DNA of 34,836 bases from Chloroflexota bacterium (GCA_041180765.1 JBEGQU010000055.1:1-34836), one strand, 5' to 3'; positions 4,974 through 28,931 are shown, numbered from the stretch's first letter. Numbers and translations: made by a program. Notes: generated from the letters alone by a model not told the origin.

Positions 4974-6272
4974 CTACGGGGTCTCGGCCGCCGCGGCGAT
5001 CTTCGCCGCGATCGCCGCCCGGGCGGCGGTGCGATCGCTGAAGTCGATCCCCTCCATGTCGCCGGGGGCGAGGCCCGCCGCCCAGCCGCGCGGCGTGCGC
5101 GCGCCGTCGGCGGCGTAGCGGTCGGCGACCATCAGGTCGAACGCCTGGACGCTCGCCTCGAGCTCGCTGTAGCGGCCGGGGGGGAGCATCTGCGACGCGG
5201 TGCCGCGCTGCTGCAGCTCGCACACGTGCCAGTCCTGGCGGTTGGTCATGTCCCAGAAGCCGTGGGCGTCGGAGAAGTCGAAGCCGGGGGCGGCAGCGGT
5301 GTCGGGGTGCACGTACCAGTCGCAGGTGACCTTGGAGCGTCCCGGGCCGATCGGCTCGATCATGTGCACCATCAGGTAGTCGGGGTGCAGCGAGAGGAGC
5401 AGGTTCGGCCAGACGGCGAAGTACTGGATCCGCTTCGCGTCGGTCTCGGTCATCCCGGCCAGCCACGGGCGGCTGTGCGAGCCGCGGTCGAGCCCCATGG
5501 TGAGCGCCTCGCCGACGAGCGGCTGCCAACCGCCCTTCCACCAGCCCCGCGCGGGGATATCCTCGCCGAGGTCGTAGGGGGTCAGGGCGTTGAGCTGCGG
5601 GTGGACGCCCGGGCAGTGGTAGCACTCGGAGTAGTTCTCTACGAGGATCTTCCAGTTCGCCGCGACGTCGTACTCCTCTCGCCGGGTGCGGCGGAGCGGG
5701 GCGAAGTCGAAGCGCGCGAAGACGTCGACGAGGTCGTCGAGGTAGGAGAGCAGCGGCTCCGCCTGCGCATCGAGCGTGAGGAAGACGAAGCCCTGCCACG
5801 TCTCGCAGCGCACCGGCACCAGGTCGTAGTCGCGCGGGTCGAAGCGCTTGAGGTCCTCGGTGTGCTTCGCCCTGAGCAGGGTGCCGTCGGGGGCGTAGAC
5901 CCAGGCGTGATACGGGCAGACGATCTTCTCCGCCTCGCCGCAGTCGGGCTTGCCGTCGCGCGGCCCCTCGATGAGCGTCGCGCCGCGGTGGCGGCAGGCA
6001 TTGAGGAAGGCGCGGATCTTGCCGTCCTCGCCGCGCGCGACGATCACCTGCTCGCCGCCGAACTCGAGCAGGCGGTACGAGCCGGGGCCGGGGGTCTCCT
6101 CCTCGCGGCCGACGCAGCGCCACTCGCGGCGGAAGATCTCCTCGGACTCCCAGGCGAAGATCTCCGGGTCGTGGAAGACCCGCGGCGGGAACATGTCGGC
6201 CTCGTCGAACGGGCGGCGCACCGCGGCGATCGCCGCGGGGTCGAGCGGGGCGGAGCGCTTGGCGATGATCAT
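4974..6272 (-). CDS. Rieske [2Fe-2S] non-heme iron oxygenase alpha subunit (GbcA/CntA-like)
   Basis: Rieske motif CRHRG...CPYHAWVY and mononuclear iron motif NYSECYHCPGVHP. I take the start at MIIAKRS (6272), because the longer ORF would run through the divergent EamA gene. Confidence 0.85.
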   Translation of the reverse strand: MIIAKRSAPLDPAAIAAVRRPFDEADMFPPRVFHDPEIFAWESEEIFRREWRCVGREEETPGPGSYRLLEFGGEQVIVARGEDGKIRAFLNACRHRGATLIEGPRDGKPDCGEAEKIVCPYHAWVYAPDGTLLRAKHTEDLKRFDPRDYDLVPVRCETWQGFVFLTLDAQAEPLLSYLDDLVDVFARFDFAPLRRTRREEYDVAANWKILVENYSECYHCPGVHPQLNALTPYDLGEDIPARGWWKGGWQPLVGEALTMGLDRGSHSRPWLAGMTETDAKRIQYFAVWPNLLLSLHPDYLMVHMIEPIGPGRSKVTCDWYVHPDTAAAPGFDFSDAHGFWDMTNRQDWHVCELQQRGTASQMLPPGRYSELEASVQAFDLMVADRYAADGARTPRGWAAGLAPGDMEGIDFSDRTAARAAIAAKIAAAAETP

Positions 6273-6350: not shown

Positions 6351-7277
6351 ATGCCGAGCCGTGCCGCAACCGCCCCCCGTCGCGTGGCCACGCGTGCCGC
6401 GATCGGGGACCTGACCCTCGCCGCGGCGCTCTGGGGCGGCCTCTACATCGTCTCGGCTGCCGCCTTCGCCGCCGTCCCCCCGGCCACCCTCACGCTGCTC
6501 CGCCTCGCGCTCGGCGCTGGCGCCCTGCTGCTGGTCGGTCGGCTGCGCGGCGAGGCGAGCGGCTGGGGCCTGGCGCCGCGGCGCGCGACCCTCGCCGCCG
6601 CGGCGGTCGCCGCGCTCTCGATGCTGCTGCAGTTCGGCGGGACGGCGCTCACCTCGGGGGTCGAGGGCTCGGTGGTGACGATGTCGACGCCGGTCTTCGT
6701 ACTCCTCTTCGGCCGCCTGCTCGAGGGGGAGCGCATCGCACTGCGCGCCTGGCTCGGCATCGGCCTGGCCGCCGCGGGGGTCCTGCTCCTCGCCGCGCGC
6801 GCGACCGAGGCGACCGGCGCGGGGGACGGCGCGGCGCACCTCGTCGGCGTCGTCGCGCTCGTGGGCGCGGGCGCGACCTGGGCGCTCTTCTCGAGCCTCG
6901 GCCGCCCGCTCGTCGCGCAGATCGGCGCGCGCCGGGCGATCGCCCTCAGCGGCGCGCTCGCCCTGCCGTTCATCGTCCCGTTCGCCGCGGCGGAGCTGCT
7001 GCTCGTCGGCATCGACCTCGCGGCCGCCACCACCCCGGCGAGCATCGGCGCGATCCTCTACCTCGGACTCGGCGCGACCGCGCTCGGCTGGAGCGCCTGG
7101 TACCGCGGCTACGCCGCCGCGCCGCCGAGGGTCTCCGCCGGCGTGCTCTTCCTCCAGCCGCTCGTCTCGGCGCTGCTCGGCATCGGCGTGCTCGGCGCGC
7201 CGGTCGATGCCGCGTTTGCCGTAGGCTCGCTGCTGCTGCTGGGCGGCGTCGCCGCGATCGCGCGGGTCGCGCCATGA
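6351..7277 (+). CDS. EamA/DMT-family membrane transporter
   Basis: Internal ATG of the 5226..7277 ORF. 308 aa with about 10 TM helices in two EamA-like halves. Confidence 0.8.
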   Translation: MPSRAATAPRRVATRAAIGDLTLAAALWGGLYIVSAAAFAAVPPATLTLLRLALGAGALLLVGRLRGEASGWGLAPRRATLAAAAVAALSMLLQFGGTALTSGVEGSVVTMSTPVFVLLFGRLLEGERIALRAWLGIGLAAAGVLLLAARATEATGAGDGAAHLVGVVALVGAGATWALFSSLGRPLVAQIGARRAIALSGALALPFIVPFAAAELLLVGIDLAAATTPASIGAILYLGLGATALGWSAWYRGYAAAPPRVSAGVLFLQPLVSALLGIGVLGAPVDAAFAVGSLLLLGGVAAIARVAP

Positions 7278-9250
7278 CCGACGTGCGCGAGTACCTCGCC
7301 GGCAGGATCCCCGTCGCCGGCCGTGCGGCGCTGACGACGAACGATCGCGGCGAGCGGGTCGATCCCCCCGCCGACGACCGCGCCGCCTGGGGTGAGTGGG
7401 TCTCGGCGTCGAAGACGCGCAACTGGCTGCTGCGCGACCCGCTCCTCGACTGGCTGCAGCTGCACGGGGAGGGGCAGGGCTTCGCGCGCGATGCCGCCTA
7501 CGGCCAGGAGCCGCCGAGCCCCTACGACATCACGTCGCTGCTCTTCCAGAAGGGGGCCGAGTTCGAGGCGGGGATCTTCCGGCTCCTCGAGGCGCGCGTC
7601 GAGAGCTTCGTCCAGGCGGGGGGCGGCTGGGAGGCGGCGCGCAGCCTTGAGGTGGCGCAGCAGACCTTCGAGGCGATGCGCTCCGGCGTGGAGCTGATCG
7701 AGCAGGGGGTGGTGCGCAACCCGGAGGCGCGCACCTACGGCTCGATCGACCTGCTCGTGCGCAGCGACGTGCTCGAACGCCTCTTCCCCGGAACGCTCGG
7801 TGCCGAGGAGGCCGCCGCACCCGCCCCCGGGCTCGCCGCCGACGACGGGACCATCCCCCCGTGGCACTACCGCGTGATCGACGTGAAGTTCTCGACCCTG
7901 ACGATCACCGCCAACGGCTACGCCTCGAGCGCGCACCGCCACTATGCCGGCCAGGTGCTCGTGTACACCGCGGCGCTGGCGCGCATCCAGGGCCACTGCC
8001 CGGCGGAGGCGTACCTGCTCGGTCGCACCTGGGTCAACCAGAAGCAGCGCGGCGGCGGCGCGCTCGAGCGGCTCGGCCGCGTCCCCGTTGCGCGCGACGA
8101 CCAGCGTGGCGACGCCCTGCCGCTCGTCGACGACGTGGCCCGCGCCATCGAGTGGATGCGCCTCGTGCGCCACGAGGGTGCCGCCTGGCACGCGTTGCCG
8201 CGCCCGAGCCGCCCCGAGCTCTATCCGAACCTCGGCAACCCCGAAGACGACCCCTGGAGCGACGCGAAGCGGCAGATCGCGCGGGAGATCGGCGAGCTCA
8301 CATCGCTCCCCGGGGTCGGCTGCGACCTGCGCGATGCGGCGCTCGCGCGCGGCGTGCTGCGCCGCGACCAGTCGGGACTCACCCCGGAGCTCCTCGGCGT
8401 GGGCGGCGATGTGCGTCCACGCCGGCTCGCGGCGGTGCTCGAGGCGAACGACCCCGCCCGCGTGGCCGCGATCGCCGCGGACCCGTCGGCTGCGGTCGTC
8501 CCCGCGCGCATCGACCTGCCCCCCGACCAGGAGCGTGTGTGGCGCCCCGCCTGGCGCCTCGAATTCTGCGTCGACTTCGAGAACACGCAGAACCTCGACG
8601 ACGATTTCTCGGCGCTCCCGGCCGTGGGCGGCAGCGTCTGCATCTTCCAGGTTGGCTGCCTGGTGCAGGTCGACGGGCGCGCTCCGACCGCCGACGAGAT
8701 CGCCGCGGCGGGCGTCGGCCCGAGTGCGTTCGGCCAGTGGACCGCGGCGCGCCTCTCGCTCGCCGGCGAGCGCGGGGTGCTCGACGCCTGGCGCGACTTC
8801 ATGGACGCCTGGCGCCGGTCGCTCGGCCTGCGCTGGGAAGAGGTGCGGATCGTCCACTGGTCGCCGGCCGAGCCGAACCTGCTGGCCAACTCCTACAACT
8901 GCGCCGCCGACCGCCACCCCGACTGGCGCCTGCCGGAGGGGCTCGGCTGGCTCGACCCGCTCGAGGCGGTCGTGCACCGGGTACCCGTCGGGGTCGCCGG
9001 GGCCTGGGGCTTCGGGCTCAAGAGCATCGCCAAGGGGATGCACGCCGCGGGGCTGATCCCGACGGTGTGGGGCGACGGTCCCGCCGACGGACTCGGGGCG
9101 ATGGCCGCCGCGTTCGCCGCCGACCGCGCGGCGGCCGCCGGCGGGCGGACGCTCATCGACGCCCCCTACATGCGCGACGTGGCCGCCTACAACGAGGTGG
9201 ACTGCCGGGCGATGGCCGAGGTGCTCGCCTGGCTGCGGGAGAACCGCTAG
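7274..9250 (+). CDS. RecB-like PD-(D/E)xK nuclease fused to an RNase H-fold (DEDDy-like) exonuclease domain, TM0106-family-like
   Basis: 658 aa. The ATG overlaps the EamA stop (ATGA). N-terminal motifs: KGAEFE, GSIDLLV, IDVKFS (D..D/ExK), QVLVYTAAL (QxxxY). Middle helix-hairpin-helix LTSLPGVGCDL. C-terminal motifs: CVDFENT (DxE), HWSPAE, YNEVDCRAM (Yx3D). Confidence 0.7.
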   Translation: MTDVREYLAGRIPVAGRAALTTNDRGERVDPPADDRAAWGEWVSASKTRNWLLRDPLLDWLQLHGEGQGFARDAAYGQEPPSPYDITSLLFQKGAEFEAGIFRLLEARVESFVQAGGGWEAARSLEVAQQTFEAMRSGVELIEQGVVRNPEARTYGSIDLLVRSDVLERLFPGTLGAEEAAAPAPGLAADDGTIPPWHYRVIDVKFSTLTITANGYASSAHRHYAGQVLVYTAALARIQGHCPAEAYLLGRTWVNQKQRGGGALERLGRVPVARDDQRGDALPLVDDVARAIEWMRLVRHEGAAWHALPRPSRPELYPNLGNPEDDPWSDAKRQIAREIGELTSLPGVGCDLRDAALARGVLRRDQSGLTPELLGVGGDVRPRRLAAVLEANDPARVAAIAADPSAAVVPARIDLPPDQERVWRPAWRLEFCVDFENTQNLDDDFSALPAVGGSVCIFQVGCLVQVDGRAPTADEIAAAGVGPSAFGQWTAARLSLAGERGVLDAWRDFMDAWRRSLGLRWEEVRIVHWSPAEPNLLANSYNCAADRHPDWRLPEGLGWLDPLEAVVHRVPVGVAGAWGFGLKSIAKGMHAAGLIPTVWGDGPADGLGAMAAAFAADRAAAAGGRTLIDAPYMRDVAAYNEVDCRAMAEVLAWLRENR

Positions 9251-9254
9251 GCGA

Positions 9255-10655
9255 TCAGCGGCGCCGGTACCGCCGCGCGACCACCGAGAGCAGCGGTAGC
9301 TTGGTGAGCAGCTCCGAGATCGGTCGCCCCTCGCGACCGTCTCGCCCCTCGACGGCGAGCAGGCGGTCGGCGGCGTCGCCCTCCACGTGGCGCGGGTCGC
9401 AGGTGCCGAGGTCGATCTCGACCTCGCCGGGGATCGCCTCGCCGAGCGGCGCGAGCAGGTGCGGCGCGATCTCGTCGGTCTCGAGGTCGAGGCGCAGCTC
9501 CTCCTCGAGCTGCCAGCGCGGGTTGCGGAAGAGGATCGCCCGCCAGGCTTCCGCGACCGCCGGCGTGACCGTCCCGTCGCGTGGGTGCGGCTCGAGGGAG
9601 ATGTCCTGGCCGCGCGCCCAGCGCGCCGCGCGATGCAGCAGCGCGTACTCGTCGAGCTCGAGGTAGGCGGCGAGGTCGTCGGCGGGAGAGAGGTCGCCGA
9701 AGATCGCCCGGATCCCTGGCGCGAACGCCTCCTTCATGTCGAGGTCGATGCCGCGCACCGTGCGGTGCAGGTAGACCTGCTGGTAGAGGAACCAGCGCGC
9801 GTCGAGGAACGCCTCGAGGGCGCCGACCGCCGGTTCGTACAGGGTGAGGCCCCGCGGCCCGATGAACGCGTAGCGGCGCAGCCGCTCGACGTCGACGGCG
9901 GCGATGCGCACGCCGGTCATGTAGGCGTCGCGGCGCACGTAGTCCAGGTTGTCGACGGTGAAGACGCCGGAGAGGAGCGGCTGCAGGATACGCAGCCAGC
10001 GCGGCGCCGAGGGGTCGACGAGCGGTGGCTTCGAGACGAGGAAGCTCACCCAGGCGGGGTCGATCCGCTCGTCGGGGGCGAAGGCGTCGTTCGCCGGCTT
10101 CTCGCCGGGCGCCCGCTGCAGCCCGCCGATGATCCCGCCAAGCTCGCGCTCGATGATCAGCGCCGAGAGATCCTCGTGGGCGAGCCGCTTCCCGGGCGCC
10201 CGCCGCGCGTCGGCGGGGGCGGCATGCTCGTGGAGCACGGCGTGGTCGAAGAAGTGGGCGAACGGCCCGTGGCCCACGTCGTGCAGCAGGCCCGCGACGC
10301 GCAGCGTCTCCACGACGAGCCCCTCGCTCGGCACGTGGTCGCCGTCGGCGGCGAGCTGCTGGGCGAGCGACGGGTAGAGGTGGCGCGCCCAGAGGCCCGC
10401 CTCGTGCATCACGCCGAGCCCGTGGGCGAAGCGGCTGTGCTCGGCGGTGGGGAAGACCCAGCGGGCGCTCTGCAGTTGGCTGATCCGCCGCAGGCGCTGG
10501 ACCCAGGGCGTGTCGAGCAGGTCCTCCTCGGCGGCGCGTTCGGGGGCGTGGCCGACCGCCGCCGCCCCCTCGTCGGTGAGGCGCTTCGTCAGCTCGATGT
10601 AGCCGTGGATCGGGTCGGAGATGAGGTTGACCGCGCGGAAGTGGCCGGCATCCAT
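9255..10655 (-). CDS. HD-domain dNTP triphosphohydrolase, SAMHD1-like
   Basis: 466 aa. Motifs SDPIHGYIELT, VQRLRRISQL, HSRFAHGLGV, LLHDVGHGPFAH and DNLDYVRRDAYMTG match the SAMHD1/EF1143-type HD signature. The start lies 3 nt after the WYL gene stop. Confidence 0.85.
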   Translation of the reverse strand: MDAGHFRAVNLISDPIHGYIELTKRLTDEGAAAVGHAPERAAEEDLLDTPWVQRLRRISQLQSARWVFPTAEHSRFAHGLGVMHEAGLWARHLYPSLAQQLAADGDHVPSEGLVVETLRVAGLLHDVGHGPFAHFFDHAVLHEHAAPADARRAPGKRLAHEDLSALIIERELGGIIGGLQRAPGEKPANDAFAPDERIDPAWVSFLVSKPPLVDPSAPRWLRILQPLLSGVFTVDNLDYVRRDAYMTGVRIAAVDVERLRRYAFIGPRGLTLYEPAVGALEAFLDARWFLYQQVYLHRTVRGIDLDMKEAFAPGIRAIFGDLSPADDLAAYLELDEYALLHRAARWARGQDISLEPHPRDGTVTPAVAEAWRAILFRNPRWQLEEELRLDLETDEIAPHLLAPLGEAIPGEVEIDLGTCDPRHVEGDAADRLLAVEGRDGREGRPISELLTKLPLLSVVARRYRRR

Positions 10656-10658
10656 CGG

Positions 10659-11669
10659 CTAGCCCCGCTCGGCGTAGCGCGCGGCGGCGGCCGCGTGCGT
10701 GCGCGCGATGTCGTCGCGGAGCGACTGCGGTCGGATCACCTCGGCGCCGTCGCCCCAGCCGAGCACCCAGCCGCGGATCTCCGACGTCCCCGAGACGCGC
10801 CCCCGCCAGAGCAGCCCGCCGCCGGGCTCGTCGCTGATCGACTGCGACGGGTGCCAGCGCGTCTCGCGCACGCGCGCCGCGGCTGCCGGGCTGAAGCGCA
10901 CGACCACCTCCTCGAGCGGCTGGTCGGCGACGATGTCCCAGGCCGCGGAGAGCGTGCGCTCCAGGTCGACGTCGCTCGGCGGCGCGAACGTCTCGGACGA
11001 GACGCGGATGCCCGAGATGCGGTCGACGCGGAAGGTGCGCAGTGCGTTGCGTGTCTCGTCGTACCCGATCAGGTACGTGGCGAGCGTCGCCGCCGATGGC
11101 TCGACGAGGTAGGGGCGCACGCGTGCGATGCGCGTGGTCCCCGGGTTGCTCCACGCGGCGGCGTACTCGAACTCGACGATCCGGCTGCCGACCCAGGCGG
11201 TGGTGATCTGGCGCAGGCGCGCCTGGGCGGCGGCGTCGGCGTTGAGCTCGGCGATCTGCGCCACGGTGCGCTCGACCGTCGAGCGGAGCGGCTCCTCGAG
11301 CATGCTGCCGAGCTTCGTCAGCGCGCCGCCGAACTCGGGGTCGTAGCCCGTCGAGAACTTCGCGAGGAGGCGCGCCGCGAGGACGAGGGAGAGCGCCTCG
11401 TCGCGGCTGAAGCGCAGCGAGGGGAGCAGCCCCGTGTTGCTGACCCCCCAACGGCCATGTTCGTTCCAGATCGGCACGTCGACCTCGAGCTCGAGCGCCT
11501 TCAGGTCGCGGTAGGCGGTGCGGCGGCTGACGCCGAGGAGCCTCGCCAGGTCTTCCGGCCGGATCCCGCCCTCGCCGGCCCCCTCGACGTACTTGAGCGT
11601 GCGCAGCAGCCGGGCGGAGCGATCGTTCTTGCTGAAGGGCTCGCCCGCGGCGTCGCGTGGGGGTGTCAT
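10659..11669 (-). CDS. HTH-WYL-WCX transcriptional regulator (PafBC/BrxR/CapW-like)
   Basis: 336 aa. N-terminal HTH LARLLGVSRRTAYRDLKALE. Central WYL-type strand YLIGYDETRNALRTFRVDRI. C-terminal extension domain present. Confidence 0.85.
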   Translation of the reverse strand: MTPPRDAAGEPFSKNDRSARLLRTLKYVEGAGEGGIRPEDLARLLGVSRRTAYRDLKALELEVDVPIWNEHGRWGVSNTGLLPSLRFSRDEALSLVLAARLLAKFSTGYDPEFGGALTKLGSMLEEPLRSTVERTVAQIAELNADAAAQARLRQITTAWVGSRIVEFEYAAAWSNPGTTRIARVRPYLVEPSAATLATYLIGYDETRNALRTFRVDRISGIRVSSETFAPPSDVDLERTLSAAWDIVADQPLEEVVVRFSPAAAARVRETRWHPSQSISDEPGGGLLWRGRVSGTSEIRGWVLGWGDGAEVIRPQSLRDDIARTHAAAAARYAERG

Positions 11670-11674
11670 GTCCC

Positions 11675-11680
11675 AGACTG
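11675..11680 (-). promoter_or_regulatory. weak -10-like hexamer, CAGTCT-N5-ATG(11669)
   Basis: nAnnnT hexamer 5 nt upstream of the WYL start, with no SD. Suggests a leaderless regulator mRNA. Confidence 0.25.
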
Positions 11681-11724
11681 TGCCACAACCGCCGTATCGG
11701 GAGCAGCCCCCGTGCGAGGCTCCC

Positions 11725-12456
11725 TCAGGTCGTGCGGCGCGCCGCGTCGACGAAGGCGCGCCAGACGCGCTCGAGGTCGGGCGGGCTGCTCTCGGTCCGC
11801 TCGGGGTGGCACTGCACGCCGAGGACGAAGCGCTCCCCCGGTTCCTCGAGTCCCTCGACGAGCGGGCCGCGCGGCGAGTCGGCGAAGGCGGCGGCGCGCA
11901 GCGTCGGGGCGAGGCGCTCCGGCGTCACCGCCTGGTGGTGGTAGCTGTTCACCGCGAGCGGCGCGGTCACCGCGCCGAGGATCGTCGCGAGGCGCGTGCC
12001 AGGGGCGACATCGAGCGGGTGGACGAGCGCCGGCACCTGCGGGTACGAGGCGCCGACCTGGCCCTCGACGTGCTGCAGCAGCGAGCCGCCGCGGTGGACG
12101 TTGAGGAACTGCAGGCCGCGGCAGATCCCGAAGACGGGTAGCGCGCGGCGATCGGCCGCGTCGAGCGCCACCCACTCGAGCGCATCGCGCGCGGCATCGA
12201 TCTCCACCGCGCCGTCGACCGGCTCGCCGTAGCGCGCCGGGTCGATGTCGGCGCCGCCGCTGAGCAGGAGGCCGTCCATCCGCTCGAACGCGCTCGCGCG
12301 CTGCCGTTCGTCGGCGAGCGACGAGAGGAGCAGCGGCAGGCCTCCGGCGCGGCGGACGCCGTCGGCATAGCGGGCGTTGATCAGCGCGACGCTGGCCGGA
12401 TCGAGCGAGCCGTCGACGTCGGCGACGGTGATGACGATGAGCGGTGCGCCGCTCAT
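11725..12456 (-). CDS. class I glutamine amidotransferase / gamma-glutamyl-GABA hydrolase-like (peptidase C26)
   Basis: 243 aa. Nucleophile elbow GICRGLQFLNV and catalytic GVQCHPE. The start overlaps the stop of the upstream PLP enzyme (ATGA). Confidence 0.85.
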   Translation of the reverse strand: MSGAPLIVITVADVDGSLDPASVALINARYADGVRRAGGLPLLLSSLADERQRASAFERMDGLLLSGGADIDPARYGEPVDGAVEIDAARDALEWVALDAADRRALPVFGICRGLQFLNVHRGGSLLQHVEGQVGASYPQVPALVHPLDVAPGTRLATILGAVTAPLAVNSYHHQAVTPERLAPTLRAAAFADSPRGPLVEGLEEPGERFVLGVQCHPERTESSPPDLERVWRAFVDAARRTT

Positions 12457-13715
12457 GCTCCCGCGAGCTGTCGGACCGCTGCGATCAGGCGATCGACCTC
12501 TGCCGCGGTGTTGTACGACATGATGCCGACGCGCAGCACGCCGCCGCTCTCGGTCAGCCCGACCCCTTCGATGGCGTTCGGGGCGTAGAAGTCGCCGCTC
12601 CAGGTCTGGATCCCCTGCGCACCGAGGTGCGCCTCGATCTGCTCCGGCCGGGCGAAGGTGGCGTCGAACGAGACGATCGAGGTGCGCTCCGCGGTCCGAG
12701 CCGGGTCGGTGATGCCGCGCACCGTCACGCCCGGGATCGCCGAGAGCCCGTCGATGAGGCGGCGTGCGAGGCCGGCCTCGTAGGCGTTGATCGCCCGGAG
12801 CCCGGCGCGGATCTCCGCGCGGCGGCCGGCCAGGGGGGCGCCGTCGGCAGGGTCGCCGAACTCCCGCCCGACCCAGGCGAGGTAGTCGATCGCGGCGGTC
12901 ACCGCTCCCATCCCCTCGAAGCTCGGGGTGCCCGTCTCCCAGCGGTCGTGGGCCGGGCGCACCTTGTAGCGCCCGTAGCGGTCGAGGAGCTCGCGCTTGC
13001 CGTAGAGCAGCCCCGCATGCGGCCCGTAGAACTTGTACGGCGAGCAGAGGAGGAAGTCGGTGTCGTAGGCCTGCACGTCGATCGGATAGTGCGGCGCGCT
13101 GCAGACGGCGTCGAGGATCGTCAGCGCGCCGGCCGCATGGGCCATGCGCACGATCTCCTTGCTGGGATTGATCGTGCCGAGCGCGTTCGACGACATGCCG
13201 ACGGCGACGAGTTTCGTCTTCGGCGAGAGCAGCGCCGCATAGGCCTCCATGTCGAGCGTCGGGTCGTCGGCGCGCACCGGGATCTCACGCAAGACGAAGC
13301 CCTGGTCCTCGGCGAGCAGCCGCCACGGGTTGTAATTGGCGTCGTGGTCGAGGCGCGAGACGACGATCTCGTCGCCGGGCCGCATCCCCTTGGCGAGCGA
13401 TCGCGAGAGCGTGAGCACGAGCGTCGTCATGTTGGCGCCGAACTTCACCGTCTGCGGCGGTGCGTTGAGCAGGTCCTCCGCGGCGGCATGCGCCTCGTCG
13501 GCGATGCGCGCGCGCCGCTGCGACGTGACCCACTGCCCGCCGGAGTTCGCGTTGGCGGTGAGGAAGAAGTCGCGATAGGCGTCGATGACCGACTGCGGCA
13601 CCTGGGTGCCGGCGGGGCCGTCGAGGAAGGCGATCGGCGTGCCGTCGTCGAGCGTGTTGCCGAGCGACGGGAAGCGCGCGCGGATCTCGGCGACGTCGTA
13701 CGGGCGGTGTTTCAT
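12453..13715 (-). CDS. class V aminotransferase-fold PLP enzyme (cysteine desulfurase-like)
   Basis: 420 aa. Has the overall class V pattern, including HDANY, the SPYKFYGPHAG lysine region and a C-terminal YNTAAEVDRL. Confidence 0.85.
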   Translation of the reverse strand: MKHRPYDVAEIRARFPSLGNTLDDGTPIAFLDGPAGTQVPQSVIDAYRDFFLTANANSGGQWVTSQRRARIADEAHAAAEDLLNAPPQTVKFGANMTTLVLTLSRSLAKGMRPGDEIVVSRLDHDANYNPWRLLAEDQGFVLREIPVRADDPTLDMEAYAALLSPKTKLVAVGMSSNALGTINPSKEIVRMAHAAGALTILDAVCSAPHYPIDVQAYDTDFLLCSPYKFYGPHAGLLYGKRELLDRYGRYKVRPAHDRWETGTPSFEGMGAVTAAIDYLAWVGREFGDPADGAPLAGRRAEIRAGLRAINAYEAGLARRLIDGLSAIPGVTVRGITDPARTAERTSIVSFDATFARPEQIEAHLGAQGIQTWSGDFYAPNAIEGVGLTESGGVLRVGIMSYNTAAEVDRLIAAVRQLAGA

Positions 13716-15295: not shown

Positions 15296-15301
15296 CGGCC
15301 G

Positions 15302-15307
15302 ATTGTA
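15302..15307 (-). promoter_or_regulatory. putative -10, TACAAT-N6-ATG(15295)
   Basis: Near-consensus hexamer on the minus strand, 6 nt from the start, with no SD. Confidence 0.45.
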
Positions 15308-15327
15308 GGGGCGGTGCCGCGCGCCGC

Positions 15328-15333
15328 TACGAT
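15328..15333 (+). promoter_or_regulatory. putative -10, TACGAT-N6-ATG(15340)
   Basis: TAnnnT hexamer 6 nt from the HAD start. It lies back-to-back with the minus-strand TACAAT element. Confidence 0.45.
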
Positions 15334-15339
15334 CGACCC

Positions 15340-23255: not shown

Positions 23256-23924
23256 ATGAGCCACTACTCCGTGGAACCCGCCGACAAGCCCAAGGCGCTG
23301 ACCGCCCAGACGATCAAGGCGCTGCGCCACGAAGAGGTGCAGGGGATCTCGCGTCGCAGGCTGCTGCGCACGACGATCGGCGCCGGCTTCGCACTCTGGC
23401 TGCTCGAGGTGACGACCGGCACCCTCGGCTTCCTCTGGCCCAACCTCGAGGGCGGCTTCGGCGGCAAGGTGCGCATCGGCACCCTCGACGACCTGAAGAA
23501 GGGGAACGTGGGCCTTCCGATCGCCGAGGGCTACCCCGCCTACGTGCAGGAGGCGCGCGCCTTCATCATGCTCGTCGATCCGAGCCGCCAGGAGTTCGTG
23601 CCGGGCGAGGATCCGACCGGCGAGGGGAGCGCGCTGAACGTGCGCGCCCTCTACCAGCGCTGCCCGCACCTCGGTTGCAAGCCGAACCCGTGTATCAAGA
23701 CCTACTGGCTCGAGTGCGCCTGCCACGGCAGCCGCTACGACCGCCTCGGCACCAAGGCCGACGGCCTCGGCCCGGCGCCGCGCGGCATGGACCGCTTCGC
23801 CCTCTCCGTCGACGACAGCGGCGTGTTGACGCTCGACACCGGCAAGATCAGCCTCGGCTCCGCGCCCGTCGCGCTCGGCCAGCCGGGGATCGAGGCGCCG
23901 CGCGCCGCCACGGGGTGCATCTGA
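23256..23924 (+). CDS. Rieske [2Fe-2S] subunit with Tat signal
   Basis: SRRRLLRTTIGAGFALW twin-arginine signal-anchor. Cluster boxes CPHLGC and CACHGSRYD. GGGGGAG SD upstream. Confidence 0.9.
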   Translation: MSHYSVEPADKPKALTAQTIKALRHEEVQGISRRRLLRTTIGAGFALWLLEVTTGTLGFLWPNLEGGFGGKVRIGTLDDLKKGNVGLPIAEGYPAYVQEARAFIMLVDPSRQEFVPGEDPTGEGSALNVRALYQRCPHLGCKPNPCIKTYWLECACHGSRYDRLGTKADGLGPAPRGMDRFALSVDDSGVLTLDTGKISLGSAPVALGQPGIEAPRAATGCI

Positions 23925-24937
23925 TGGCCGACGAGCAGCGCGACCTCCCCGTGCCGGCGGAGCGGGAGAGCGCCCCCGTGCCGCGCCTCTCGAGCCCGGC
24001 GGCGATCCACACCCACGGGCTCGATGCCGAGCGCGCCGCGAAGATCGTGAAGCAGAGCGGCTCCTCGCGCGCCGCCGCGCTCCTCGGCGTGATGATCGTG
24101 ACGATCTTCGTGCTGCTCTACGCCTTCTACGACCAGGGGCTTCCCGGCACGACCGGCTCGTCGCGACTCGCCGCGGCGCGCGAGGAGCAGTACCTCGAGA
24201 CGGTGAAGCGCGGCTACAACCTGTTCCAGGCGAACTGTGCCCGCTGCCACGGCGACCAGGGGCAGGGCGGCATCGGCCCGGTCCTCAACGACCAGGGGAA
24301 GCTCCTCTCCCACCTCACGCCGGCGTACCTGAAGAACGTGCTCACCGTCGGCGGCCGCTACGTGTGCGGCAACGCCAACTCGCTCATGGGCGTCTGGGCC
24401 GACGTCAACGGCGGCCCGCTGAACTACCGCGAGATCGAGGAGCTCATCGCCTGGATCCGCGCCACGAAGGACGACACGATCACCGTCACCGATCCGGCGA
24501 CCGGCGAGAAGGTCGAGGTGACCGGCTGGCGCGATGCCGCCTACGAGCCGGCCCCCGATGCGACCCCCGTCCCCGCCTGCTGGAGCGACGCCTTTGCCGC
24601 GTCGCCGACGCCGACCCCCTCGGGCGGCACGCCGAGCGCTCCCGCGGGCGAGACCTACACGATCGTCGCCATGGGGGTGAAGTTCACCACCTCGACGCTC
24701 GAGGTCGCGGCAGGAACGGCGTTCCGCATCGCCTTCGACAACCAGGATGCCGGCATCCCGCACAACGTTGCGATCCACGAGGGGACCGTCGACGCGGTCG
24801 GCAAGGAGCTCTACCAGGGGGCGATCTTCCCGGGCGTGGCGCAGAAGACCTACGACATCCAGGCGCTCGCCGCGGGCAGCTACGTGTATGTGTGCACGGT
24901 GCACCCGAACATGGTCGGCACCCTGGTGGTGAAGTGA
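23924..24937 (+). CDS. membrane-anchored monoheme cytochrome c fused to a type-1 copper (cupredoxin) domain
   Basis: The ATG shares one nt with the Rieske stop (TGATG). Contains a TM helix, a CARCH heme motif, a Pro/Thr/Ser linker, then cupredoxin ligands HNVAIH...CTVHPNM. Confidence 0.85.
   Translation: MADEQRDLPVPAERESAPVPRLSSPAAIHTHGLDAERAAKIVKQSGSSRAAALLGVMIVTIFVLLYAFYDQGLPGTTGSSRLAAAREEQYLETVKRGYNLFQANCARCHGDQGQGGIGPVLNDQGKLLSHLTPAYLKNVLTVGGRYVCGNANSLMGVWADVNGGPLNYREIEELIAWIRATKDDTITVTDPATGEKVEVTGWRDAAYEPAPDATPVPACWSDAFAASPTPTPSGGTPSAPAGETYTIVAMGVKFTTSTLEVAAGTAFRIAFDNQDAGIPHNVAIHEGTVDAVGKELYQGAIFPGVAQKTYDIQALAAGSYVYVCTVHPNMVGTLVVK
24752..24819 (+). repeat. arm A of an inverted repeat between the two cupredoxin genes
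   Basis: 63/68 nt identical to the reverse complement of 27958..28025. A second 26-nt block, 24893..24918, is identical to the reverse complement of 27859..27884. Confidence 0.9.
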
Positions 24938-27327: not shown

Positions 27328-27843
27328 CTAGGGACCCGAGACGAACGCCGCGATCTCCTCGATGCTGCCGAACGGCCCCACCTGGTAGTCGAGCACGCGC
27401 CCCTGCGCATCGAGCAGGAGCGTCAGCGGCGCGGCGTTCACCGGCACCTGGGCGGCGATCGCGCCGCCGGGATCGAGCAGCGTCGGCCAGGTCGCGCCGA
27501 GGTCGAGCGCCGCCTCGAGCGCGGGCCCCGACTCGTCCCGGTAGAGCACGCCGACGAGGCTGGCGGCGTCCCCATCGGTCGCCAGGTACTCGGCGAACAG
27601 CGGGATCTCGTCGCGGCAGGGAGCGCACCAGCTCGCCCAGAAGTTCATCAGGAGCCGCGTGCCCCCCTCGTCGAGCAGTTCGCCGTAGCCGGGGCGGGCG
27701 GCGGCGTCGCCGAGCAGTTGTGCGCCGGCGATGTCGATCGTCCGCCCCACGAGCGGCGTGGGGGAGGCGGCGATCCCCCCGCAGCCGGTGACGATGAGCA
27801 GCGCTGCGAGCAGGGCGGCGACCGGCCCGCCCCGGCGGATCAC
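27328..27843 (-). CDS. TlpA/ResA-family thiol:disulfide oxidoreductase lipoprotein
   Basis: The GTG overlaps the upstream stop (GTGA). Lipobox LLIVTGC and thioredoxin motif FWASWCAPC. An ATG at 27867 is an alternative start. Confidence 0.85.
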   Translation of the reverse strand: MIRRGGPVAALLAALLIVTGCGGIAASPTPLVGRTIDIAGAQLLGDAAARPGYGELLDEGGTRLLMNFWASWCAPCRDEIPLFAEYLATDGDAASLVGVLYRDESGPALEAALDLGATWPTLLDPGGAIAAQVPVNAAPLTLLLDAQGRVLDYQVGPFGSIEEIAAFVSGP

Positions 27844-28931
27844 TTGGCGCTCAGGCTCCCGACCATGTTCGGGTGCACCGTGCAGACGAAGACGTATTCG
27901 CCGGCCGGCAGCCCGACGATGGTGTACGTGCGCTCGTCGGCGCCGTTGAAGATCTCGCCCTGGAAGAGCTCCTTGCCGACTGCGTCGACGGTCCCCTCGT
28001 GGATCGCCACGTTGTGCGGAATCCCAACGTCGTAGTTGACGAACCGCAGCTTGCGCGGCTCCCCGGCCGGGAGCTCGATGGAGGGGAGCAGGAAGGCGAC
28101 CTTCTCGGCGCAGATCGTCACGACGCCGGTCTCGTCGGGGGCGCAGGCGGGGCCGCTCGGGCTCGGGCTCGGACTCGCCGCGCCGCCGCCGAAGATTCCG
28201 GCCTGCGTCCCGCCGACGAAGACGAAGAGCAGGGAGAAGGCGACGATGGCGCCGAGCGGGGCGCGGCGCGGCGCCGGCGACACCAGGTGGCCCGAGGCAT
28301 CGGCCGCTTCGACCGCGCGGTACTCGCGTCCGGCATCGACGAGCCAGCCGACGAGGGCGAGCGCCGTCATCGCGGCGCCGAGGAGCAGCCACGACGCACC
28401 GATCGCGGCACCGAAGAGGAGGACGGCGGCCCCGAGGCTCACCAGGAAGGGGAGCAGCGAGGGGGGCGGAAGGTGGACGCCCTCGGGCGGACCCGCCGGC
28501 TCGACCGGCTGCGCCACATCCGCGGCGGCGACCAGCGCGTTGCCGTGCCCGTCGCCGAGCAACTCGTATTCGCGGAACGCTTCGCGCCCCCAGGCGAGCA
28601 GCGCGGCCACGAAGAGGGCGGCGGCGACCCAGAGCGCGATCCCGCCGAGTGCGACGGAGAAGAAGAGCGCGGCGGCCGCGGCCGAGATCAGGAACGGGGC
28701 GAGGCTGGGCCCGGGGAGGTGGATCCCGGCCGGGGGCACCTCGGCGCGGGGCGGCAGGCCGACCCGGCGGCGCCCGGCGCGGGCGTAGCGCCAGAGGACC
28801 CAGGCGTAGTAGCCGGCCACGAGGAGCAGCGCGCCGATCGGGAGGAGGCGGATGAGCGCCCCCCAGTCGGGGGCGACGAGTGGCCCGAGGAGCGAGACGA
28901 GCCACTCGAGCAGGGAGCGGAGGAACTCCAT
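27840..28931 (-). CDS. polytopic membrane protein: two tandem CtaF-like (oxidase subunit IV-like) modules fused to a cupredoxin domain
   Basis: 363 aa. The internal repeat is GIHLPGPSLAPFL..(2 TM)..WGREAFREYE and GVHLPPPSLLPFL..(2 TM)..WLVDAGREYR. A Ser/Pro linker follows, then HNVAIH...CTVHPNM. Confidence 0.8.
   Translation of the reverse strand: MEFLRSLLEWLVSLLGPLVAPDWGALIRLLPIGALLLVAGYYAWVLWRYARAGRRRVGLPPRAEVPPAGIHLPGPSLAPFLISAAAAALFFSVALGGIALWVAAALFVAALLAWGREAFREYELLGDGHGNALVAAADVAQPVEPAGPPEGVHLPPPSLLPFLVSLGAAVLLFGAAIGASWLLLGAAMTALALVGWLVDAGREYRAVEAADASGHLVSPAPRRAPLGAIVAFSLLFVFVGGTQAGIFGGGAASPSPSPSGPACAPDETGVVTICAEKVAFLLPSIELPAGEPRKLRFVNYDVGIPHNVAIHEGTVDAVGKELFQGEIFNGADERTYTIVGLPAGEYVFVCTVHPNMVGSLSAK
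27958..28025 (-). repeat. arm B of the inverted repeat between the two cupredoxin genes
   Basis: See arm A. It encodes the identical peptide GIPHNVAIHEGTVDAVGKEL. Confidence 0.9.

Follow-up and report, generated by a model that had tools for sequence, protein, structure and literature searches.

A conserved gene pair for a WYL regulator and a predicted SAMHD1-type dNTPase in the Chloroflexota class Limnocylindria

The closest described counterparts of the regulator considered here are DriD of Caulobacter crescentus and PafBC of Actinobacteria, which are WYL-domain activators of SOS-independent DNA-damage responses that are themselves activated by single-stranded DNA (ssDNA). In a 34,836-nt stretch of DNA from a Chloroflexota bacterium (JBEGQU010000055.1 of assembly GCA_041180765.1; "the window" below is this whole stretch), a gene for a transcription factor of the same HTH-WYL-WCX architecture (P0003) is followed on the same strand by a gene for an HD-domain protein (P0002) that resembles SAMHD1, a deoxynucleoside triphosphate (dNTP) triphosphohydrolase. 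An initial annotation had placed both genes, together with a convergent nuclease gene (P0001), in a candidate stress or anti-phage module. We read the WYL-HD pair, with moderate confidence, as a vertically inherited operon of the class Limnocylindria in which a WYL regulator that senses ssDNA is joined to a SAMHD1-type dNTPase, so that the dNTP pool is controlled during damage or replication stress. This reading draws on the conservation of the pair, the rearrangement breakpoints on both of its sides, the co-divergence of the two proteins, their invariant residues, the 3-nt spacer between the genes, the DriD/PafBC profile of the regulator, the precedent of DdaA and the housekeeping clade to which the HD protein belongs.

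DriD and PafBC are the best profile matches of the regulator in the Protein Data Bank (PDB), but neither of them is co-transcribed with a dNTPase, as the WYL gene of this Chloroflexota lineage appears to be, and at that gene we found neither a CGAC-N7-GTCG-like operator nor a PafBC-type upstream element. A DriD-related WYL regulator is likewise linked to a dNTP triphosphohydrolase in the damage response of Moraxellaceae, where the activator DdaA directly controls a dGTPase-ruvA-ruvB operon within its DNA-damage regulon (PMC12392091). There, a distal operator (CGWCA-N5-TGWCG) stands before a Dgt-type dGTPase, whereas here the regulator and a SAMHD1-type enzyme would be encoded on one mRNA.

The WYL-HD pair and its two proteins

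The closest relatives in the species-representative genome set are metagenome-assembled genomes of Candidatus Limnocylindrus and Aquidulcis (Chloroflexota, class Limnocylindria), whose HD proteins are 80-84% identical to P0002. Neighbourhood conservation of the pair had been named beforehand as a check. The window proteins were compared by tblastn with the best 80 of at least 563 species-level relatives, and in 79 of these 80 genome loci a same-strand WYL gene precedes HD; the sequence of the exception extends no more than 108 nt upstream. With sister-clade HD proteins as seeds, a metagenome scan gave another 80 loci, in which WYL genes were sought with a hidden Markov model of 58 orthologues (E ≤ 1e-3, up to 4 kb of flank); a WYL gene was present in all nine Limnocylindria-type loci, whose HD protein is at least 65% identical to P0002. 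The pairwise distance matrices of WYL and HD correlate (r = 0.84, with 0 of 999 permutations as high), which argues for joint vertical inheritance, and WYL evolves about 1.9 times faster than HD. The pair occupies a fixed position in hundreds of species-level genomes (at least 563 relatives), and its distribution is that of a co-diverging syntenic pair of the whole class, neither patchy nor carried by islands or mobile elements.

Rearrangement breakpoints flank the pair on both sides: upstream, C26 peptidase and aminotransferase genes in some loci correspond to a membrane-protein gene in others, and downstream there is a nuclease, a subtilase or an M23 peptidase gene. The C26 gene is the upstream neighbour in the window's own family (L001-L022), and a multi-pass membrane protein without Pfam match takes this place in 53 more distant loci. 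In 30 of those 53, a gene for a secreted protein with CAP (cysteine-rich secretory protein family) and fibronectin-III (fn3) domains lies between WYL and HD, separated by gaps of about 10 nt (loci within L023-L080), as an unexplained passenger in a nucleic-acid-related operon. In the window, the WYL stop codon (TAG) is followed by 3 nt (CCG) and then by the HD ATG at 10655, and many relatives have overlaps at this place. A candidate WYL-HD fusion protein (P0250, 848 aa), encoded on a long-read contig of a Limnocylindria relative, was rejected; its N-terminal part is frameshift-like and of low complexity.

The HTH-WYL-WCX assignment of P0003 made in the initial annotation was borne out by Pfam matches to HTH_11 (8.4e-7), WYL (6e-12) and WCX (5.4e-19), which together make up the complete architecture. 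When a profile of 23 orthologues was compared with the PDB, the only WYL regulators matched were DriD (3e-18) and PafBC, PafB and PafC (2e-14 to 8e-12), and no BrxR or CapW chain was matched at E ≤ 0.1. PafBC, BrxR and CapW had all been named at the outset as WYL regulators that sense DNA damage or phage cues; by profile P0003 resembles PafBC, and also DriD, and not the other two. According to Gozzi et al., six key residues of DriD bind ssDNA, namely Y168, R176, R178, Y192, R204 and R207. Five of the six are kept in P0003 as Y169, R180, Y199, R211 and R214 (K/R at 214), invariant in 58 orthologues, and the aromatic residue at the DriD W206 position is kept as well, with F213 amongst the invariant positions. 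From the exclusive profile matches and these contact residues we infer that P0003 is an ssDNA-responsive factor of the damage-response type. It is encoded by a single gene, so it presumably acts as a homodimer like DriD and not as a PafB/PafC pair.

P0002 matches Pfam HD, and its sequence relatives in the PDB (E about 1e-17 to 1e-22) are the Aquifex protein 2hek, EF1143 of Enterococcus (2o6i), the Bacteroides protein 2q14 and SAMHD1. In the alignment with SAMHD1, the metal ligands H78, H125-D126 and D235 correspond to H167, H206-D207 and D311, and the substrate and catalytic residues R75, H129, H134, H160, Y239, D243, R287, Y295 and H297 to R164, H210, H215, H233, Y315, D319, R366, Y374 and H376, respectively. 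Additionally, D48, Q53 and R56 align with D137, Q142 and R145, which in SAMHD1 belong to the guanine-nucleotide allosteric site 1. The complete SAMHD1-type catalytic signature that had been claimed for the HD protein was thus confirmed, as the full set of aligned metal, substrate and allosteric residues does not vary among 60 orthologues of 65-84% overall identity. Judged by these residues, P0002 is probably a (d)GTP-activated oligomer that hydrolyses dNTPs. Its likeness to vertebrate SAMHD1 and Enterococcus faecalis EF1143 covers the H..HD..D metal site, the substrate pocket and the D/Q/R of allosteric site 1, but identity is only about 25-30% over residues 44-312, a SAM domain is lacking, and no solved structure resembles the last 150 residues in sequence.

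We consider it very unlikely that P0002 is some other HD phosphohydrolase, acting for example on a modified nucleotide or on a signalling nucleotide sensed by the WYL domain. Such an activity would agree with the family matches of P0002, which besides Pfam HD comprise only a weak HD_assoc_2 and no NCBIfam equivalog, with the uncharacterised status of several of its top PDB relatives (2hek, 2q14 and 9mr6), and with the sensing of cyclic di-GMP by one WYL factor (PMC11880434), but against it stand the substrate and allosteric residues of SAMHD1, all of which have aligned counterparts in P0002 that do not vary among orthologues.

Promoter elements and the coupling of the two genes

Within the spacer of 55 nt that precedes the WYL gene lies the block GTGGCACAGTCTG, which ends 5 nt before the ATG. 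All 18 of 18 close relatives have the sequence GTGGCAC(A/G)(A/G)TCTG unchanged or nearly so, and sequence further upstream is not conserved. The block can be read as TGG followed by CACAGT or CACAAT, an extended −10 element that, ending so close to the ATG, probably drives a leaderless mRNA. The initial annotation had drawn attention to a −10-like hexamer 5 nt upstream of the WYL gene and to the lack of a Shine-Dalgarno sequence. The element is real, recurring in all 18 relatives, but it is an ordinary feature, because TAnnnT-N6-ATG without a Shine-Dalgarno sequence is found at no fewer than seven other genes of the window (starts at 104, 13715 (−), 15295 (−), 15340, 19482, 29162 and 32090) and TGG-CACCAT-N6-ATG, of the same TGG-CACnnT-N6-ATG form as the WYL promoter, precedes the Rieske gene at 6272. 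Amongst the more distant relatives, 47 loci conserve TAGACT in front of the operon's first gene, that of the membrane protein, always a constant short way from its start codon. To judge by these boxes, the mRNAs of this organism seem as a rule to be leaderless. Two of the boxes, TACAAT and TACGAT, stand back to back in a 44-nt divergent intergenic region (15296-15339), each 6 nt from its ATG, and this region would be a minimal bidirectional leaderless promoter.

Two other interpretations of the block were rejected. Recognition by σ54 takes a −12 element within TGGCAC-N5-TTGC; no TTGC element follows TGGCAC here, and the same form precedes the Rieske gene. An operator common to the WYL and the nuclease/EamA promoters was likewise discarded, since the only exact copy in the window is the one at 11674-11686 and matches with three mismatches are rarer than chance. 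A scan of 9100-12000 revealed neither a canonical σ70 promoter nor an intrinsic terminator. The 3-nt gap between WYL and HD contains no promoter-like element, which argues for co-transcription of the two genes. In riverine metatranscriptomes, only a few contigs of 150-250 nt fall on the two genes, and one contig of 151 nt ends at 11665, a weak indication.

On our preferred reading, the extended −10 element (TGG-CACAGT) would drive transcription of both genes as one mRNA, beginning at the WYL ATG or immediately beside it. The WYL protein would dimerise via WCX and, judging from the conserved DriD contact residues, use its WYL/WCX cleft to bind ssDNA that arises when DNA is damaged or replication stalls. 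If it behaves like DriD, PafBC and DdaA, the ligand-bound regulator would then alter damage-response promoters, possibly including its own, and the co-expressed HD enzyme, given its residue set, would hydrolyse dNTPs to deoxynucleosides and triphosphate, thereby trimming or rebalancing the pool during repair.

Several observations weigh against such a coupling. The equivalent of DriD R176, the sixth contact residue, is variable amongst P0003 orthologues. Neither ahead of WYL in the 18 close relatives nor ahead of the operon in the 47 distant loci was a conserved palindrome or operator found, only −10 elements being conserved there, so that the WYL protein is at most a candidate regulator of its own operon; and neither a transcription start site nor co-transcription is visible in the sparse, fragmentary metatranscriptome contigs. 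Across most of the class, the unrelated membrane-protein gene is the first of the transcription unit, which in 30 loci also has the CAP/fn3 gene inside it, and with so heterogeneous a make-up, operon membership may reflect compaction and not function. Additionally, no WYL gene was found in any of the 71 metagenome loci with a sister-clade HD protein (36-51% identical), in five representative HD contexts at about 40% identity, or beside four plasmid HD homologues at about 29% (Thermomicrobium, Mycobacterium, Klebsiella and Sinorhizobium).

The same points would fit a pair that is syntenic without being joined by regulation, in which the WYL protein is a damage or stress regulator whose targets are promoters elsewhere, or else the genes for the membrane or secreted proteins, and the HD protein is a constitutive housekeeping dNTPase of unlinked function. 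Heterogeneous operons (a membrane protein in 53 loci, CAP/fn3 in 30), the lack of an operator and the sister HD clades that do without a WYL neighbour are all consistent with this, and PafBC and DriD act chiefly on distant genes (PMC9186387). However, the pair survives the breakpoints on both sides across roughly 55% WYL divergence while all other neighbours change, the genes are spaced by 3 nt here and overlap in many relatives, and co-transcription would link the doses of both proteins whatever drives the promoter. We therefore regard mere synteny as possible but rather doubtful, and keep the coupled operon as our preferred reading.

As a separate observation, the HD homologue on the Sinorhizobium plasmid (NZ_CP144207.1; 30% identical) stands in a defence-island-like run (locus L084, 199-8304) of genes for Shedu SduA, a radical SAM protein, a 3'-5' exonuclease, an AAA ATPase, the HD protein, PIN and XRE. 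The run has no connection with the Limnocylindria pair but could represent a system that is still uncharacterised.

Gene neighbourhood and the question of defence

The features around the pair are listed in Table 1. Third-position GC (GC3) frame analysis was used to tell true genes from many overlapping shadow open reading frames (ORFs), and favoured the WYL, HD and nuclease ORFs. The ORFs, coordinates and spacings reported in the initial annotation all proved correct on re-check, including the 3-nt WYL-HD gap and the 4 nt (9251-9254) between the stop codons of the convergent HD and nuclease genes. The promoter-bearing spacer separates the WYL gene from the same-strand C26 gene that precedes it. 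The wider flanks hold metabolic and transport genes only (an amino-acid ABC transporter, a DAO oxidoreductase, a Rieske oxygenase, a HAD hydrolase, thiamine pyrophosphokinase and cytochrome b/Rieske proteins) and no integrase, transposase or phage gene, which agrees with the caution, expressed from the start, that mobile-element hallmarks are lacking and the flanks are housekeeping genes. Base composition is uniform throughout the window at ~74% GC.

Table 1. Coordinates of the WYL-HD pair and adjoining features in the window
Feature	Coordinates	Strand	Evidence or remark
EamA-family transporter	6384-7277	+	Pfam EamA 4.6e-22; stop overlaps nuclease start (ATGA)
P0001, PD-(D/E)XK (Cas4/RecB-like) + DEDDy exonuclease, 658 aa	7274-9250	+	AF2/Foldseek, invariant motifs
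P0002, predicted SAMHD1/EF1143-family HD dNTP triphosphohydrolase, 466 aa	9255-10655	−	Pfam HD, PDB matches, residue alignment
P0003, HTH-WYL-WCX transcription factor, 336 aa, DriD/PafBC-like	10659-11669	−	Pfam HTH_11, WYL, WCX
Promoter block GTGGCACAGTCTG	11674-11686	−	Conserved in close relatives; extended −10 reading
C26 gamma-glutamyl peptidase / class-I glutamine amidotransferase	11725-12456	−	Pfam Peptidase_C26 1.7e-46
Class-V aminotransferase	12453-13715	−	

P0001 has no sequence match in Pfam, NCBIfam, PADLOC or the PDB. With its AF2 model (pLDDT 91.5), Foldseek matched the N-terminal part to Cas4 (8d3l_I, E 0.019, probability 1.0) and MGME1 (E 0.04), and the C-terminal part, weakly (E 0.1-1), to TREX1, a herpesvirus polymerase exonuclease and RNase HI. 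The RecB motifs (D159, D203-x-K205, Q227-x3-Y231) and the DEDDy motifs (D434-x-E436, D561, Y639-x3-D643) are invariant in an alignment of 33 family sequences. Given these folds and motifs, "RecB-like/DEDDy nuclease", the name first given to P0001, is a fair one. The protein has the folds and the D, DxK, QxxxY and DxE...D...YxxxD motifs of the PD-(D/E)XK enzymes Cas4, MGME1 and RecB and of DnaQ/TREX-like DEDDy nucleases, but differs from them in matching no Pfam or NCBIfam model and in having its gene coupled to that of an EamA transporter.

The proposal that the nuclease belongs to the module did not hold. HD and nuclease genes are tail-to-tail, as in the window, in 10 close relatives, but in nine others (L003, at 7449-10835; L008, L011-L014, L016, L017 and L019) a gene for an 1128-aa S8 subtilase with a PA domain lies between them, and in 58 distant loci no P0001 homologue was present within 6 kb, a convergent M23 peptidase or other genes being found there instead. 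The adjacency is therefore incidental, and P0001 is not part of the WYL-HD unit. The constant and actual operon partner of the nuclease is the EamA gene, translationally coupled to it by the ATGA overlap, with the EamA-nuclease order kept in L001, L003, L005, L007, L008, L010, L011, L014, L017 and L019-L021.

Two features of this side of the locus can be recorded in their own right. The EamA and nuclease genes (6384-9250) stay together in close relatives, an odd transporter-nuclease coupling, and the presence/absence polymorphism of the subtilase gene, which is absent from the window, falls exactly at the tail-to-tail junction. Homologues of P0001 elsewhere (41-45% identity; L091-L094, for example L091 3298-10301 and L092 5001-7988) are found in varied and unrelated contexts: one lies between Ku and DUF72-LigD in a non-homologous end-joining cluster, one carries a fused JetD_C-like domain and has type-IV-secretion genes as neighbours, and others stand beside insertion sequence (IS) elements with GIY-YIG and NYN, beside a Dcm/Vsr pair and a resolvase, or amongst metabolic genes.

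Depletion of dNTPs is an established defence, exemplified by SAMHD1, bacterial dGTPase and dCTP deaminase. In an anti-phage role for the locus, the WYL protein would be a repressor like BrxR or CapW that lets go when phage or damage is sensed, whereupon the de-repressed dNTPase, with or without the nuclease, would starve the phage's DNA synthesis. The layout, a WYL gene immediately upstream of a same-strand effector gene, is that of CapW-CBASS and BrxR-BREX, in which WYL repressors directly precede defence operons; moreover, CapW senses ssDNA (PMC11662680), DdaA co-regulates damage-response and defence genes (PMC12392091), and some P0001 homologues occur near IS elements, methylase/Vsr genes or JetD-like fusions. 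However, the WYL profile matched neither BrxR nor CapW at E ≤ 0.1, nuclease adjacency is not conserved, and PADLOC, run as a check of the defence idea, returned 0 families for P0002 and P0001 and only generic WYL/Cas-associated models for P0003. The HD genes of the sister clades lie in housekeeping surroundings, beside Lon, AIR-synthase-like and sugar-nucleotide genes. No viral contig encoding a relative was found, the flanks are metabolic, and a core pair inherited vertically at a fixed position throughout a class is unlike the patchy, island-borne distribution of defence systems. We consequently find this anti-phage role quite unlikely.

Altogether, the PADLOC result, the lack of viral copies, the uniform composition, the metabolic flanks and the fixed core pair speak against the character of a defence island or anti-phage module, and the evidence favours the alternative that the initial annotation had itself raised, that the locus is part of a DNA-damage regulon. 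By analogy with SAMHD1, a dual role in repair and defence could still be accommodated.

Elsewhere in the window, the genes at 23924-24937 (+) and 27840-28931 (−) share an exact 25-nt inverted duplicate at their 3' ends (24894-24918 (+) and 27859-27883 (−)). Their C-terminal 92 residues are 61% identical and include a cupredoxin-like C-x2-H-x2-M motif (CTVHPNMVG), which marks them as paralogous domains of the blue-copper type.

Implications for Limnocylindria

The combination of a WYL regulator with a dNTPase is not described in the literature that we searched, where a WYL domain was nowhere mentioned together with a dNTPase, a triphosphohydrolase or SAMHD1, and it is a variation on known themes. 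The analysis also removes a false lead, as the juxtaposition with the nuclease and the reading of the locus as a defence module are unsupported.

A bolder and improbable extension of the coupled operon is a hard-wired, SAMHD1-like checkpoint. The ssDNA-sensing WYL protein would autoregulate its leaderless operon, and DNA damage or intermediates of phage replication would raise the level of the (d)GTP-gated dNTPase, so that dNTP pools collapse transiently, replication pauses and phage is restricted. If this were true, the whole class would have on its chromosomes a counterpart to vertebrate SAMHD1, which serves both in repair and against viruses.

It is becoming apparent that WYL regulators sense ssDNA both in damage responses of the non-SOS kind and in defence systems, and SAMHD1-family dNTPases connect replication, repair and antiviral restriction. 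The unit described here, kept across an abundant and uncultured class of Chloroflexota from freshwater and soil, would provide a concrete and testable link between the sensing of ssDNA and the dNTP pool.

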